Shown: one piece after another, positions 3,767 to 11,215 of the stretch
How the letters are laid out: each line of letters begins with the position of its first letter
How positions within the stretch are numbered: position 1 is the stretch's first letter
From: an uncultured Neisseria sp.
GTDB lineage: Bacteria; Pseudomonadota; Gammaproteobacteria; Burkholderiales; Neisseriaceae
Assembly (NCBI GenBank): GCA_963533245.1
Contig: CAUSOO010000018.1
Coordinates: forward strand, 7,129 to 31,128
Direction: 5' to 3'
DNA: 24,000 bases
Notes under the pieces: model-generated
What the model saw: the letters and a program-made list of their open reading frames with translations, nothing else
Databases searched by the model: none
What the model was told of the DNA's origin: nothing
Position numbers and translations under genes: made by a program

Positions 3767-6130
3767 TTAGCTGCGAAGTTGCGCTCCTGCAGCAGTTGCC
3801 GCATCAATCAGTTTTCCGATAACCGGCTCGACTGTTTCATCCGTCAGCGTGTTTTCCATATCCTGCAAAATCACTTTAACTGCCATGCTCTTCATCCCTT
3901 CAGGCAGGCCCGTACCGCGATACACGTCAAATACGCTGATTTCCTGTACCAACTTGTTTGTCGCGCCGTTCAAGGCGGCCAACAAATCATCATGGATCAT
4001 GGTTTCAGGCATCACAAACGCCAAATCCCTGCGCACCGGCTGAAATTTCGATACTGCCTGATAACGCGTTTTTTCGCGTTCCAACACGGCTGCCATATCG
4101 ATTTCAAATACCAGCGGTGCTTGCGGCAAGTCGTATTTTTGCAGCCATTTTGGATGCAATTCGCCGACAAAGCCGATAACTTGGCCGTCTGAAACGATAT
4201 TGGCAGCACGGCCGGGATGCAGGGCGGGATGTTCGGTTTTAACGAACTCAACCGCTTTGTTTTTCAACAGATTTTCCACATCCGCCTTGATGTCGTAAAA
4301 ATCCGCGTTGCGCGTTTTCTCGCCCCACTGTTCGGGCATCGCCACGCCGTACCACAGGCCGCCGATGCGTTCGTTTTGTACAAACAGGCCGTCTGAATCC
4401 TTGCTGAACACGCGGGCGATTTCAAACACACGCACGCGGTTTTGCTTGCGGTTCAGATTGTTTTGCAGAATTTCCACCAAGCCGCCGATAAGCGTGGAAC
4501 GCATCACGGCATACTGCGCCGCCAGCGGATTTTGCAGGCGGATGGGGTTGGCGTTGGCGGCAAAATCGTGTTCCCACTGCTCGTCAACGAAGGCATAGCT
4601 GACTACTTCGCGGTAGCCGCGCGCCGCCATTTCGTTATAAACGGCAAAACGCGGACGGCGGGTTTCGGGCAGTGCCAGCATTTTCAGACGACCTGACGTG
4701 TAATCGTCGGGGATATTTTCATAGCCGTAAACGCGGCCGATTTCTTCAATCAAATCGGCTTCGATTTCGATGTCGAAACGAAAGCTCGGCGCGGTAACGC
4801 GGAAGCCTTCCGCCGTTTTTTCAGGCTGCAAGCCCAAGTGCTGCAAAATGGTTTCCACCTGTTCGGCAGGAATGTCCACGCCCAACACGGTCTTCAGACG
4901 ACCCAAACGCAATTCGACCTGCTTCGCTTCAGGCAATTCGCCCTGCGCTTCCACCATTTCTCCTGCCGCACCGACGCAGATTTGCAAAACCAATTCGGTA
5001 GCGCGTTCGATGGCGTCAGCCTGCAAACGGTAATCCACGCCGCGCTCAAAGCGGAACGACGAATCCGAGCCAAAACCGTATTGGCGCGATTTGCCAGCAA
5101 TAATTTCAGGCGCAAACCAAGCCGCTTCCAGCACGATATTTTGCGTGTCGTCTGAAACCGCGCTTGCCGCGCCGCCCATCAATCCTGCCAAACTCAACGC
5201 GCCTTTTTCATCGGCTACCACCAGCGTATTTTCAGACAAAGAGACGGTTTTCTCGTTCAGGCATTCCAGCGTTTCACCTTCGCGCGCGCGACGAATGTGC
5301 AGGCTGCCTGAAAGTTTGTCGGCATCGAAAACATGCATCGGCTGACCGATTTCCAGCATCACATAATTGCCAATGTCCACCAGCGCGGAAATACTGCGGA
5401 TGCCGCTGCGCTCCAAACGCTGCTTCATCCAATCCGGCGTGGCGGCGCGCGCGTTCACGTTTTCAATCACGCGGCTGATAAAGCGGCCGCAATCGGCAGG
5501 CGCATCAATCTGCACGGGCTGTTTGCGGCTGCCCGTGATTGGCGCGGCATGGATTGCAGGCTGCTTGAACGCGCAACCCGTCAGCGCGGACACTTCACGC
5601 GCAATGCCTTTGATACTCAGGCAGTCGGCACGGTTCGGCGTGATTTTCAGCGTGAACACCGTATCGTCCAAATCCAAATATTCACGGATGTTTGCACCGA
5701 CGGGCGCGTCTTGCGGCAGAATGTGCAAGCCGTTCACGCCGTCGTCAGGCAGACCGAGTTCGTCGGTGGAACACAACATGCCGTTCGACACCACGCCGCG
5801 CATCTTGGTCGGCTTGATTTTGAAATTGCCCGGCAACACCGCACCCGGCAACGAACACGGCACTTTGATGCCCGCTTTCACATTCGGCGCACCGCACACA
5901 ATCTGCACCAACTCGCCCGTACCCGCATCGACTTGGGTAACGTTCAAACGGTCGGCATCAGGATGTTTTTCAACGGATTTCACTTCGGCAATCACCACAC
6001 CCGTAAACGCAGGCGCGGCAGTCTCGGCTTCTTCCACTTCCAAGCCGGACATGGTTAACAGATGTTCCAGCTTATCGGCGGAAAGTTCGGTATCGGCTTG
6101 GGTTTTCAGCCATGAGTAGGAGAATTGCAT
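3767..6130 (-). CDS. pheT: Phenylalanine--tRNA ligase beta subunit
   Basis: 787 aa. It has the N-terminal tRNA-binding domain (MQFSYSWLK...VVIAEV...HPDADRL), the B3/4 and B5 domains and the C-terminal FDX-ACB region, all typical of PheT. Confidence 0.97.
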   Translation of the reverse strand: MQFSYSWLKTQADTELSADKLEHLLTMSGLEVEEAETAAPAFTGVVIAEVKSVEKHPDADRLNVTQVDAGTGELVQIVCGAPNVKAGIKVPCSLPGAVLPGNFKIKPTKMRGVVSNGMLCSTDELGLPDDGVNGLHILPQDAPVGANIREYLDLDDTVFTLKITPNRADCLSIKGIAREVSALTGCAFKQPAIHAAPITGSRKQPVQIDAPADCGRFISRVIENVNARAATPDWMKQRLERSGIRSISALVDIGNYVMLEIGQPMHVFDADKLSGSLHIRRAREGETLECLNEKTVSLSENTLVVADEKGALSLAGLMGGAASAVSDDTQNIVLEAAWFAPEIIAGKSRQYGFGSDSSFRFERGVDYRLQADAIERATELVLQICVGAAGEMVEAQGELPEAKQVELRLGRLKTVLGVDIPAEQVETILQHLGLQPEKTAEGFRVTAPSFRFDIEIEADLIEEIGRVYGYENIPDDYTSGRLKMLALPETRRPRFAVYNEMAARGYREVVSYAFVDEQWEHDFAANANPIRLQNPLAAQYAVMRSTLIGGLVEILQNNLNRKQNRVRVFEIARVFSKDSDGLFVQNERIGGLWYGVAMPEQWGEKTRNADFYDIKADVENLLKNKAVEFVKTEHPALHPGRAANIVSDGQVIGFVGELHPKWLQKYDLPQAPLVFEIDMAAVLEREKTRYQAVSKFQPVRRDLAFVMPETMIHDDLLAALNGATNKLVQEISVFDVYRGTGLPEGMKSMAVKVILQDMENTLTDETVEPVIGKLIDAATAAGAQLRS

Positions 6131-6162
6131 GTTATGTTCTCAAAAAATGTAGGTTGTAATAA

Positions 6163-7164
6163 TTAGAATTGCAAGGTAGTCCGGTGCCGTACATCTGTTT
6201 CAGATAGTAGGGATTTTATATCACCATAAAGCCTAGACAGTGGTCTTAAAAAATCGGTACCGTTGATGTTTTTTGGCATTTCCCTATTATTCTTACTATA
6301 AAATTCAAAGATCTGATTATAGGTATTTGTTTTATTTTCCTGCTGTTTCAGAGATACAGGAATATCTGGCAGGTACATTGCCAAAAATCCAACCCTTTGG
6401 AAATTACGGATTTTAGCTTTACTGGTAAATTCTTTATAATCGGTGAAAAAGCCAACACCCAGAATATCTGTGGTATAGCCAGAAGCCAACAGCCTCTCAC
6501 GGGCAAAATTCGATTTGACGGACAACCATAAGTTATTGGGCAGACACATCAGTACAAAATCACCATAAGACTGGATTTCCGGATTGTTGGTTTTAAAAAA
6601 ATGTATGCCATCGATCAAATCAGCCAAAGCCCTTTCCAGCAACATTTCAGAAATAGTTCCCAAATTAGACACCCCACTCTGTGATTCGGATTCAGTTTGC
6701 CGTCTCACCCATGCCAAACGATTTAAATCATCTATTTCAGTCTTAAAGCGGATAAAATTTTCCGAATCAACCTCCTCACCAACCAACAGAGCAATTACTT
6801 TCAGAGTGATCTCTGCTTTTAAGTGGATATGTTTTAATACCAAGCCGAATACCGGAAATTCAGCAACAAAAATCCAAATCAGTTTTTGATACGGGTTATT
6901 ATCATACCTAGGTATCTCGACAGAACAGGATTTTCTTAACGCAGACTGTTCACTTTTGCTCATTTTTGCATATAAGTCGATAATTTCATCTTTAAAATCA
7001 TCAGCATCCAATTCCATCAGTTTACCTTGAGACGGTAATGCATTGTAAAGCAACCGATATACTGGACGGTAAAATCCGTCTGCAATTTCTTGACTGAAGT
7101 GGCTGAAATCAGGTTCAGACGACACTTCTATGCCCCTGATACATTTCACCGAAACATCTTCCAT
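6163..7164 (-). CDS. Putative type II restriction endonuclease, assigned by context only (333 aa from ATG 7164; 344 aa if TTG 7197 is used)
   Basis: A long AT-rich ORF divergent from a cytosine-5 DNA methyltransferase and near a vsr gene. I could not recognise any family motif by eye. AAGAGG lies 11 nt before the ATG at 7162-7164. Confidence 0.45.
   Translation of the reverse strand: MEDVSVKCIRGIEVSSEPDFSHFSQEIADGFYRPVYRLLYNALPSQGKLMELDADDFKDEIIDLYAKMSKSEQSALRKSCSVEIPRYDNNPYQKLIWIFVAEFPVFGLVLKHIHLKAEITLKVIALLVGEEVDSENFIRFKTEIDDLNRLAWVRRQTESESQSGVSNLGTISEMLLERALADLIDGIHFFKTNNPEIQSYGDFVLMCLPNNLWLSVKSNFARERLLASGYTTDILGVGFFTDYKEFTSKAKIRNFQRVGFLAMYLPDIPVSLKQQENKTNTYNQIFEFYSKNNREMPKNINGTDFLRPLSRLYGDIKSLLSETDVRHRTTLQF
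7114..7123 (-). repeat. DUS 10-mer core (GTCGTCTGAA on the minus strand) inside the putative endonuclease gene
   Basis: Exact TTCAGACGAC on the plus strand. Confidence 0.7.
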
Positions 7165-7240
7165 AAATTTAAAAACCTCTTGGCTTTTTACAATCAAAAA
7201 GATAAAATGTGCTTAATCTGGTACATTTATAGACCCTGAT

Positions 7241-8314
7241 ATGAAGCAAATCCACATCAAATTAAACGACGAACTACACCAAAAATTGTCCACATACTGC
7301 AAACTAAACCATTTAAGTATCCAAGACTTTGTAGAATCTCAATTATTTTCGAGTCTATACAAGTCGCAAACTCCCCAAAACGCACCCTTTCGGTTTATCG
7401 ACCTTTTTGCTGGAATCGGCGGAATCCGGTTGCCTTTTGAAGAATTGGGAGGGCAATGCGTATTCAGTTCCGAAATCGATAAATTTGCCAAAACAACCTA
7501 TCAGGCATTCTATGGAGATGTCCCGCATGGCGACATTACACAAATCGCTCCGTCCGAAATTCCTGATTTCGACCTGTTACTAGCCGGATTTCCCTGCCAG
7601 CCATTCAGCCAAGCAGGATTGAAAAAAGGCTTTACTGATACACGCGGTACAATGTTTTTCCATATAGAAGAAATCATCCGCCAAAAGCATCCTAAAGCTT
7701 TTCTATTGGAAAACGTAAAAGGTTTAAAAGGACACGATAAAGGTCGGACATTCCAAACAATCTATGACTCTCTGACTGCGCTCGGCTATACTGTCAATGC
7801 CAAAGTAATGGCAGCTAAAGATTTCAACCTACCCCAAAACCGTGAACGGATTTATATAGTCGGCTTTCGCTCAGCAAAAGATGCCGCACAATTTGAATTT
7901 CCCCATCCCTTACCTAAAACCGTGAAGGTGGGAGATATCTTGGAATCCTTCCCCGATGCCAAATATACAATTTCAGACAGACTTTGGCAGGGACATTTAC
8001 GACGCAAAGCCGAGCATAAACAGAAAGGAAATGGTTTTGGTTACGGTCTGTTCAATGCACAATCCGAATATACCAACACTATTTCAGCACGTTACTATAA
8101 AGATGGTTCTGAAATTCTAATTGAACAGGAAAATACCAACCCGCGCAAACTTACTCCATTAGAAGCTGCAAGATTACAGGGATTTCCTGATGAAATCGTT
8201 CTCAAAGCGCGTAAGCGGGGGGTATCAGATGTGCAACTTTACAAACAATTTGGTAATTCCGTAGCTGTAAATGTCATTCGCAGCATTGCCCAAAAAATAG
8301 TTCCTCTACTATAA
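7241..8314 (+). CDS. DNA (cytosine-5)-methyltransferase with an N-terminal extension of about 45 aa resembling a ribbon-helix-helix domain
   Basis: Canonical m5C motifs are present: I DLFAGIGG, IV GFPCQPFS, VI ENVKGL, VIII QNRERIYIVG, X QFGNSVAV. Motif I begins near residue 53. An in-frame stop at 7214 leaves the ATG at 7241 as the only start. Confidence 0.93.
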   Translation: MKQIHIKLNDELHQKLSTYCKLNHLSIQDFVESQLFSSLYKSQTPQNAPFRFIDLFAGIGGIRLPFEELGGQCVFSSEIDKFAKTTYQAFYGDVPHGDITQIAPSEIPDFDLLLAGFPCQPFSQAGLKKGFTDTRGTMFFHIEEIIRQKHPKAFLLENVKGLKGHDKGRTFQTIYDSLTALGYTVNAKVMAAKDFNLPQNRERIYIVGFRSAKDAAQFEFPHPLPKTVKVGDILESFPDAKYTISDRLWQGHLRRKAEHKQKGNGFGYGLFNAQSEYTNTISARYYKDGSEILIEQENTNPRKLTPLEAARLQGFPDEIVLKARKRGVSDVQLYKQFGNSVAVNVIRSIAQKIVPLL

Positions 8315-8728
8315 CTTTTTTCTATTCAAAGAATCTGCAATCTGCTGAGCATATCGCTGGGGATTCTTAACAACATCCTTTCCCCAAAATCGAAAGACTT
8401 CCCAGCCCTCGGCTTTCAGACGGTCTGTTACTTCTATATCCCGTCGGATATTGCGTTCTATCTTAGCAATCCAAAATTCGCGGTTGCCCTTTATTTCCGC
8501 TTTTCTCTGTTCCCAATCCTTGCCGTGCCAAAACTCGCCATCGACAAATACGGCAACTTTGTATTTTTTAAATGAAAAATCAGGCTTCCCAAAAATGCTT
8601 CCGCTATTTTTCCGATACCTGAGCCCCAAAGCCCACATCGCTTTTGCCAACACAAGCTCGGGTTTCGTCCCTGTGCTTTTGTTGGACTGCATACATTTTT
8701 TGCGCTGTTCGGGGGTCAATTTATCCAT
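8309..8728 (-). CDS. vsr: Very-short-patch repair (Vsr-type) T:G mismatch endonuclease
   Basis: 139 aa. It aligns with E. coli Vsr as I recall it (TKPE, GKPDF, FVDGEFWHG, REFWIAKIERNIRRD, GWEVFRFW). It converges on the methyltransferase gene and overlaps it by 6 nt. Confidence 0.85.
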   Translation of the reverse strand: MDKLTPEQRKKCMQSNKSTGTKPELVLAKAMWALGLRYRKNSGSIFGKPDFSFKKYKVAVFVDGEFWHGKDWEQRKAEIKGNREFWIAKIERNIRRDIEVTDRLKAEGWEVFRFWGKDVVKNPQRYAQQIADSLNRKKL

Positions 8729-8730
8729 TA

Positions 8731-8742
8731 GAGTCGTCTGAA
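8731..8742 (+). repeat. DUS variant (GAGTCGTCTGAA) filling most of the 16-nt pheS-vsr spacer
   Basis: Read directly between the pheS stop (8745-8747) and the vsr start (8726-8728). Confidence 0.7.
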
Positions 8743-8744
8743 AA

Positions 8745-9740
<996 letters not shown>

Positions 9741-9980: not shown

Positions 9981-10340
9981 TTAAGCAGCCAAAGCAGCTT
10001 TGGCTTTCTCAACCAATTGTGCAAAAGCGGCTTTATCGAACACAGCCAGATCAGCCAATACTTTGCGGTCGATTTCGATAGAGGCGCGTTTCAGACCGTT
10101 CATAAATTTGCTGTAAGACAGACCGTTTTCACGGGCACCTGCATTGATACGGACAATCCACAATTGACGGAATTGGCGTTTGCGTTGACGACGGTCACGG
10201 TATGCGTATTGACCGGCTTTCATTACCGCTTGTTTGGCAACGCGGTATACGTTTTTACGACGACCACGATAGCCTTTGGCTAACGCGAAGATTTTTTGGT
10301 GACGGGCACGAGCGGTTACACCGCGTTTTACGCGTGGCAT
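9981..10340 (-). CDS. rplT: 50S ribosomal protein L20
   Basis: 119 aa starting [17 protein letters not shown], the typical L20 N-terminus. Confidence 0.97.
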
Positions 10341-10696: not shown

Positions 10697-11215
10697 TTAT
10701 TTTTTCTTCGGTGCAATCATCATCACCATTTGACGGCCTTCCATTTTAGGGAAGGATTCGATTTGAGCCACTTCCGCCAAATCTTCTTTCACGCGCTCTA
10801 AAAGTTGCGCCCCGAGTTGCTGGTGAGCCATTTCACGTCCGCGGAAACGGAGCGTTACTTTGACTTTATCGCCGTCAGCCAAGAAGCGGTTGATGTTGCG
10901 CATTTTGATTTGATAATCGCCTTCATCGGTACCCGGACGGAATTTGATTTCCTTAATTTGTACCTGCTTCTGGTTTTTCTTGGCTTCGTCGCGTTTCTTG
11001 GCTTGTTGGTATTTATATTTACCGTAATCCATCAGTTTGCATACGGGTGGTTTGGCAGTAGGGGAAATCTCTACCAAATCCACATCCTGCTCTTCGGCCA
11101 TAGCCAAAGCTTCACGAACCGACACAACACCAAGCTGTTCGCCTGACTCACTGATTAAACGCACTTCTTTGGCGGTAATTTCGCCATTGATTCGTGCTTC
11201 GCGTTCTTGAGCGAT
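10697..11215 (-). CDS. infC: Translation initiation factor IF-3, non-AUG (ATC) start
   Basis: The frame stays open upstream of the GTG given by the track and encodes (I)[23 protein letters not shown], a normal IF-3 N-terminus. AGGAG lies 5 nt and 8 nt before two tandem ATC codons (11216-11218 and 11213-11215). There is no in-frame ATG. Confidence 0.85.

Follow-up and report, generated by a model that had tools for sequence, protein, structure and literature searches.

A predicted ribbon-helix-helix domain at the N-terminus of a Neisseria cytosine-5 methyltransferase and a candidate operator at its promoter

What is an additional N-terminal segment doing on a cytosine-5 (m5C) DNA methyltransferase (MTase)? 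The question is raised by a 24,000-nucleotide stretch of an uncultured Neisseria sp. (GenBank assembly GCA_963533245.1, contig CAUSOO010000018.1, positions 7,129 to 31,128), referred to here as the window. It contains a 357-residue MTase gene (M; 7241..8314, plus strand), recognized as an open reading frame (ORF) matching PF00145 and TIGR00675, and a divergent gene for a putative restriction endonuclease (R; 6163..7164, minus strand, with alternative starts at 7149 and 7197), delimited from the ORF list and homologs. The original prediction proposed that the N-terminal segment is a ribbon-helix-helix (RHH) DNA-binding domain that serves as the control element of this restriction-modification (R-M) cassette. 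The first part of that proposal is well supported by sequence comparison and modeling, which indicate that residues 1-41 are an RHH domain tied to the m5C catalytic domain through a short flexible linker. As to the second part, we think it fairly probable, judging from the sequences and the predicted structure, that MTase dimers formed through this domain bind short boxes that begin at the MTase promoter (PM) and continue a little way downstream of it, and that this binding represses transcription of M.

The catalytic portion of the protein is readily identified. Pfam DNA_methylase (PF00145) spans residues 50-353 (E 1e-102, 344 bits vs a cut-off of 22), TIGR00675 (dcm) matches with 350 bits (cut-off 100.65), and the sequence contains both motif I (FIDLFAGIGG) and GFPCQPFS, with the PCQ of motif IV, as expected of an m5C MTase. 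Motif I starts at residue 52 and the alignment with M.HhaI (E 9e-68) only at residue 46, so that about 45-49 N-terminal residues are extra, in keeping with the unusually long leader that had been pointed out. Codons 1-40 were compared across nine homologous loci; nonsynonymous differences are few (pN 0.11-0.38) and synonymous differences are saturated (pS 0.76-1.0), which argues that the extension is translated and under purifying selection. As to the accompanying claim that no alternative start is evident, a single further in-frame codon ahead of motif I could pass for a start, a TTG at codon 16, and it has no Shine-Dalgarno sequence.

To describe the fold, an alignment of 33 homologous N-terminal sequences was used for both a profile search and AlphaFold2 prediction. 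The single-chain model (mean predicted local distance difference test, pLDDT, of 86) has residues 1-9 extended, α-helices at residues 10-22 and 27-41, and, after these, a tail predicted with low confidence. This is the order of strand, helix A, turn and helix B that had been parsed from the sequence. On the plus strand of the window, the β-strand occupies codons 2-9 (KQIHIKLN, 7244..7267, pLDDT ~90), helix A codons 10-22 (7268..7306, pLDDT 96), and helix B, which aligns with helix 2 of ParG, codons 27-41 (7319..7363). The linker to the catalytic domain (codons 42-49, 7364..7387, pLDDT ~59) is probably flexible, and both its sequence and its length vary between homologs. The K-Q-I-H-I-K-L strand alternates, with I4, I6 and L8 hydrophobic and Q3, H5 and K7 polar and nearly invariant; among the 33 N-termini, K2 and H5 do not vary at all, and conservation is 90% or higher at Q3, I4, K7, L16 and Q28. 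If the RHH paradigm holds, Q3, H5 and K7 face the DNA and are the likely base-contacting side chains. A conserved S/T-I-Q turn (S26, Q28) precedes helix B within the motif S/T-I-Q-D/E-F/Y-V, in keeping with the S/T/N residue that, in RHH proteins, caps helix B and contacts the DNA backbone.

The closest relative found with the profile is ParG (1p94, E 1.1e-6). The match covers exactly the RHH of ParG (residues 35-75), and the ParG strand KRVNVNF aligns with KQIHIKLN. SvtR (2kel, E 2.6e-4) follows, with HP0222, ParD and Arc as weaker matches. When the model is compared with the PDB using Foldseek, the top 50 neighbors are almost all RHH repressors, with template-modeling scores of 0.66-0.79 and root-mean-square deviations of 1.1-2.5 Å; they include ParG, StnY, PutA (2gpe, 2ay0), AmrZ, NikR, CopG, Arc, TacA, RelB, CopA and AtaR. 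No helix-turn-helix (HTH) family in Pfam or NCBIfam matches the MTase N-terminus. The RHH assignment is made because the sequence profile, the structure prediction and the fold search agree.

Could an unrelated helical leader resemble an RHH domain by chance? We regard this as very improbable. Two results speak for such a leader and, equally, against the assignment. The window sequence falls below the gathering score of every RHH family in Pfam and NCBIfam (the curated families compared were ParD PF09386, HicB PF05534, ParG PF09274, RelB and YbfE), the best being ParD with 20.1 bits vs 27.3. Furthermore, the Foldseek E-values, all above 0.1, are only 0.1-1; they are weak because the domain, at ~45 residues, is short. 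A chance likeness would nonetheless have to account for a ParG profile match that extends over the whole RHH, and for a predicted topology and near-exclusively RHH structural neighbors that concur. It would also have to explain why weak matches from three independent libraries belong to RHH families without exception; for the single sequence, the Pfam and NCBIfam matches are ParD (E 9e-4), DUF6290, HicB, DUF7557, RelB, YbfE and aCcr1. Finally, some relatives of the module that are encoded as free genes exceed the HicB gathering score, with 24.8-35.5 bits vs 21.

Because the strand residues barely vary, a shared DNA motif was sought in the regions upstream of module genes at 27 non-redundant loci. 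The top hexamer in the 80 nt upstream, relative to the rest of the loci, is GGTATA/TATACC, with 35 occurrences at 22 of the 27 loci (47-fold enrichment, binomial p ~1e-45), and GGTACA is likewise enriched. Two palindromic arrangements of these boxes recur. With 0-1 mismatch, TRTACC-N3-GGTAYA has 10 matches in 2.7 kb of upstream DNA vs 0 in 132.7 kb of background, and GGTAYA-N4-TRTACC has 11 vs 0 in the same sequences. The site at locus L017, GGTAAAATAATATACCTAAGGTATA, is an example of the canonical form in a relative. An intergenic alignment of the HpaII-like clade (one MTase homolog bears the source name "HpaII") displays four boxes, 9-10 bp apart, the first at the -10 hexamer and the last immediately ahead of the start codon. 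Box 1 coincides with the -10 hexamer itself (GG-TAAAAT or GG-TATAAT), and most relatives have three or four boxes between this hexamer and the start codon. A σ70-like promoter is found at a fixed position at six of nine clade loci, its -35 element at -60 to -64 and its -10 element ending at -33 to -36. In the classic RHH arrangement, as in Arc, CopG, omega, MetJ and ParG, pseudo-symmetric short boxes lie one helical turn apart over the repressor's own promoter.

In the window, a consensus scan predicts a σ70-type MTase promoter at 7180..7208 (plus strand), with TTGGCT as the -35 element (7180-7185), a 17-bp spacer and TAAAAT as the -10 element (7203-7208). The candidate operator, GGTACATTTATAGACC (7220..7235), consists of boxes 3 and 4, which form an imperfect 16-bp palindrome of the GGTAYA-N4-TRTACC type, and ends 5 nt ahead of the M start codon. 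It is the sole match to this pattern with at most one mismatch in the 24-kb window; we estimate that ~0.2 would be expected by chance. According to the clade alignment, GATAAA (7201..7206) is a weak remnant of box 1, for which relatives have GGTAAA or GGTATA; it overlaps the -10 hexamer and precedes box 3 by 19 bp, the spacing seen in the relatives. The two nearest relatives, L026 and L014, have kept this weak box 1 along with the 16-bp site. Neisseria sp. HMSC06F02 (L001) has an N-terminal module and MTase identical to the window copy. Within the group formed by this sequence, L026 and L014, identity is 78-85% over the 40 nt that precede the start codon and 88-94% over the operator, as compared with only 52-55% at the third positions of the adjoining RHH codons. 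That the upstream identity exceeds the third-codon identity indicates that the non-coding stretch is constrained.

A Shine-Dalgarno sequence is lacking upstream of M. What is kept there, 2-5 nt ahead of the ATG, is ACCCTG, shared by L001, L026, L027, L029, L031 and L014 (window 7226-7240); it may represent operator box 4 alone or may also have a role in translation.

Several other elements were considered and set aside. TRTACC-N3-GGTAYA has no match with up to 3 mismatches in the intergenic region of the window; a 2-mismatch match at 7129-7143 lies within the R coding region, is not kept in L026 or L014, and was taken as chance. An inverted repeat seen by eye, AAATGTGC N8 GTACATTT, and a TACATTT direct repeat at 7140 and 7222 are both unsupported as operator halves by the clade alignment. 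Methylation-sensitive control of the CfrBI type was rejected since 7150-7240 contains no CCGG.

How widely is the module used? Among the 120 closest MTases (60-99% identical), 50 begin with it (MKQIHIKL...), ~17 carry a ~72-residue HTH_3-type N-terminus instead (16 with a precomputed PF01381 match), and the remainder have 0-34 extra N-terminal residues. An HTH_3-fused relative is laid out like the window, with a divergent small ORF and vsr. In a relative without the extension, M and R form a co-oriented, overlapping operon, and the R is unrelated. The module is not confined to these enzymes. In Firmicutes it is fused to Dcm/EcoRII-like MTases (~380 aa) that adjoin EcoRII-family nucleases (PF09019, PF09217), and it also occurs as a free 47-65-aa gene before an N6_N4 methyltransferase in Acinetobacter kookii, two Chloroflexi metagenome-assembled genomes, two metagenome contigs (marine/soil set), and Salmonella and E. 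coli plasmids. The enterobacterial plasmid carriers have a ColE1-type replicon or a remnant of one. Free or fused, on m5C as well as N4/N6 methyltransferases, the module is therefore found in Proteobacteria, Firmicutes, Chloroflexi and enterobacterial ColE1 plasmids. NCBI labels the free form "HicB family antitoxin", a name that is probably misleading for an RHH protein encoded before an N6_N4 MTase.

An exhaustive profile search returns 1,241 proteins at E ≤1e-3, mostly of 45-90 aa, with the consensus (K/R)xIH(I/V)(K/R)L...LHxxLR...(S/T)IQ(D/E)(F/Y/W)V. A word-index protein search with the module alignment gave 3 proteins, and tblastn with the module gave no match among phage records and 5 weak but informative matches among plasmids. 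On the small ColE1-type Salmonella plasmid NZ_CP082340.1 (L033, 1684-3574), the RHH gene is followed by the N6_N4 MTase and a convergent gene for a hypothetical protein of 292 aa. An identical segment adjoins a Rop gene on the 103-kb IncFIB plasmid of E. coli NZ_AP019857.1 (L034). Both have a perfect TATACC-TTG-GGTATA site ~25-40 nt upstream. In two other cases (L022, 591-785; L025, 2998-3159), the free module lies directly before a serine recombinase gene, with GGTATA/TATACC boxes upstream of each.

The following mechanism is proposed for the window. Two MTase molecules would pair via their RHH domains, and the resulting two-stranded ribbon, with Q3, H5 and K7, would read the short RTAY-centered boxes, GGTAYA/TRTACC. 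Since the boxes overlap the MTase promoter and extend a short distance past it, accumulated enzyme would occlude its own promoter, amounting to negative autoregulation. The M transcript is predicted to start near 7215, which puts the site in the window at approximately +5 to +20, where a bound protein would block RNA polymerase. With boxes 3 and 4 intact, box 1 weak and box 2 lost, repression at this locus might be weaker than in relatives or rest on a single site.

A role as cassette control element is favored indirectly by the exchange of the module for HTH_3 in sister enzymes, by the free gene in front of MTases, and by boxes that, in relatives, overlap the MTase promoter; the reduced operator of the window is one part that does not fit. 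It is also among the points that weigh against autorepression. The 15-bp palindrome and box 2 (TRTACC) are absent from the window, L026 and L014, making the window operator the weakest of the clade, and the predicted promoter matches the consensus at only 9 of 12 positions. The palindrome patterns were drawn partly by eye from the loci in which they were then counted, so those counts are descriptive and the hexamer enrichment is the sole unbiased test of the operator. Serine recombinases follow the free module at 2 of 9 loci, so the module is not R-M-specific. Lastly, autorepression, dimerization and DNA binding are all deduced from sequence and predicted structure.

The degenerate operator is also what one would expect if the RHH domain were mainly non-transcriptional, serving to dimerize the enzyme or to tether it to particular DNA sites so as to alter methylation kinetics, or if it merely persisted, inert, from an upstream regulator gene that had become fused. 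RHH domains are obligate dimerization modules as a general property of the fold, and, because the free genes overlap the MTase start codon at several loci, fusion by loss of a stop codon would be easy. We nevertheless give this explanation only a small chance. The predicted DNA-contacting residues of the strand are the most conserved, rather than the hydrophobic core alone, and matching boxes recur at promoters at 22 of the 27 loci. The strong purifying selection speaks against a relic, and the intergenic footprint is kept within the window's own subclade.

Does such control extend to the divergent gene? This partner belongs to a family (~331 aa, 340 members) annotated as "hypothetical" save for one UniRef entry named "restriction endonuclease". 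Searches of Pfam, NCBIfam, PADLOC and the PDB sequences with the window protein gave no match, and its AlphaFold model, although confident (pLDDT 88), found no meaningful neighbor in the PDB by Foldseek. E173, D202 and S215-x-K217 are invariant in the family, a pattern that fits a PD-(D/E)XK site. The description of the gene as an endonuclease is thus backed by its context and a catalytic-motif-like pattern and not by any family or structural match, and we retain it as putative. The ~331-aa family may constitute a new restriction endonuclease family or fold.

Homologs of the partner (45-82% identity) lie divergent beside RHH-MTase genes at eight further loci with gaps of 79-103 bp, so that the divergent R/M layout is kept in 9 loci. 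The width of the gap in the window depends on the partner start, being 43 bp for TTG 7197, 76 bp for ATG 7164 and 91 bp for GTG 7149. The longest ORF begins at TTG 7197, and ATG 7164 has AAGAGG 11 nt upstream. In the homologs, the protein begins at the position that corresponds to GTG 7149 (MKCI...), for which the gap is 91 bp, the same as in L026; the lengths assigned by gene callers are 328-333 aa. From the earlier range of 43-76 bp, the upper value is possible, but the lower is unlikely given where the homologs begin. Nor does anything require that both promoters lie in the gap, as had been asserted. The further statement that the RHH domain faces an endonuclease promoter is conjecture, since a consensus scan located no nuclease promoter; the sole minus-strand match falls within M (7369 to 7342) and is not present in the closest relatives, L026 and L014, with a similar match at the same position in the distant L024.

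These data bear on whether the RHH domain coordinates both genes in the manner of SsoII and Ecl18kI, shutting off M and thereby releasing or activating a competing divergent nuclease promoter. We consider such coordination doubtful, though a good deal less so than a purely non-transcriptional role. The divergent layout with its 76-91-bp gap, kept in 9 loci, is compatible with it, as are the like layout of the HTH_3-fused sister MTase, the lack of a C gene in the island, and the SsoII/Ecl18kI precedent (PMC2760811, PMC12707154). It is difficult to reconcile with a nuclease promoter whose lone candidate is inside M and missing from L026 and L014, or with the poor conservation (41-62%) of the R-proximal part of the gap. 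The module is also present where R is convergent or co-oriented, so R control is not general. Were coordination to operate, the cassette would have a delayed switch from modification to restriction on entry into a new cell. Under M autorepression, any effect on the nuclease gene would be indirect or act through a promoter that the scan did not pick up; SsoII and Ecl18kI suggest such an effect by analogy, but it is a guess.

The proposed arrangement can be compared with established ones. M.SsoII, M.Ecl18kI, M.EcoRII, M.MspI and M.ScrFIA are autoregulatory m5C MTases with an N-terminal DNA-binding region (PMC2760811, PMC3978073, PMC12707154). As in these enzymes, a DNA-binding region is predicted here before motif I of an m5C MTase in a system that has no C gene of its own. 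R and M diverge from a short intergenic stretch, an arrangement shared with SsoII, Ecl18kI and MspI, and a palindromic site, in our case a candidate, overlaps or adjoins the M promoter with M repression as the expected outcome. The regions differ in kind. The SsoII-type ones are HTH domains of 70-100 residues, whereas the window has a 41-residue RHH that would need a dimer to form the DNA-reading ribbon and whose function is deduced. An SsoII-type operator is one 15-bp HTH site, whereas the candidate operator of the module is made up of several 6-bp boxes, repeated every 9-10 bp. The window MTase has no HTH of the SsoII/EcoRII/MspI type and is distinct from its PF01381 HTH_3 sisters.

In its free form, the module is reminiscent of the controller (C) proteins, such as C.PvuII, C.AhdI, C.Esp1396I and C.Kpn2I, in that it is a small gene inside R-M cassettes. 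C proteins are dedicated small autogenous regulators that bind repeated boxes at a cassette promoter. They are Xre-type HTH activator-repressors that act on R, usually encoded upstream of R and co-transcribed with it, whereas the free RHH genes lie upstream of M, often overlap its start codon, and encode another fold. In the window, the regulator would be fused to M and is not HTH, and, as had been noted, there is no separate C gene: the island ORF list contains no candidate of at least 40 aa besides the three genes described below.

By fold, the module belongs with ParG (plasmid TP228), Arc, CopG, omega, ParD and the C-terminal domain of HicB, which share its strand-helix-helix of ~45 residues; ParG is the best match in both sequence and structure. 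Repressors of the ParG/Arc/CopG type control operons of mobile elements; they bind cooperatively as dimers to arrays of short repeats over their own promoters and so autoregulate. They differ in being stand-alone or fused to partner-binding tails rather than to a DNA-modifying enzyme, and in their operator sequences. An N-terminal RHH on an enzyme is known from PutA, which represses the divergent putA-putP control region and contributes, with its DNA-binding domain, to the best Foldseek matches of the model. PutA is a proline-catabolic enzyme in another regulatory setting, with no detectable sequence relation to the module beyond the fold.

The cassette resides in an island between pheT (3767..6130, minus strand) and pheS (8745..9734, minus strand) that is low in guanine-cytosine content (36-44% vs 55-59% in the flanks; window 6131-8744). 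It holds three genes: the minus-strand ORF of 328-344 aa, the plus-strand 357-aa ORF, and a convergent vsr gene for very-short-patch repair endonuclease (8309..8728, minus strand; PF03852, E 6.5e-39; TIGR00632, E 3e-48). vsr is also found at L014 and L019. The MTase and vsr genes converge such that their stop codons share 6 nt (8309-8314). The pheT-pheS gap is a known insertion hot spot for Neisseria R-M systems. NmeDI occupies the pheS-pheT site of N. meningitidis (PMC2095814), and is ruled out as the identity of the present island by its co-oriented, overlapping M and R genes and an R of 351 aa (PMC2095814). Downstream of pheS, rplT (9981..10340, minus strand), a probable rpmI, and infC (10697..11164, minus strand) were identified by eye from the translations, an order that fits the usual infC-rpmI-rplT-pheS-pheT cluster. 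Within the coding region of the divergent gene, the plus strand has a terminator-like hairpin, TGGACGG...CCGTCTG with a T-rich tail (7063-7082), which may stop read-through from upstream or may be due to chance.

In recent reviews, the regulatory proteins of Type II R-M are all of the HTH kind, either C proteins or HTH-MTase fusions (PMC12707154, PMC6456624, PMC3874152). Neither an RHH-type R-M regulator nor an RHH-MTase fusion was found in the full-text literature searched, an absence that is not proof of novelty. We tentatively suggest, giving the idea somewhat less than even chances, that the KQIHIKL RHH module and its GGTATA/TATACC array represent a widespread, undescribed third protein class of R-M transcription controller, beside HTH C proteins and HTH-MTase fusions. 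Such a class would come with a sequence signature (MKQIHIKL... together with GGTATA boxes) by which regulated R-M cassettes could be annotated. As unrelated R-M systems have both the DNA-reading strand and the operator in conserved form, the regulator of one could cross-talk with that of another; cross-regulation would then be predicted wherever unrelated systems have a common operator, an RHH equivalent of the incompatibility groups of C proteins. The timing of MTase vs nuclease expression decides whether a cassette that enters a new host becomes established there, and also shapes its behavior as a selfish element.

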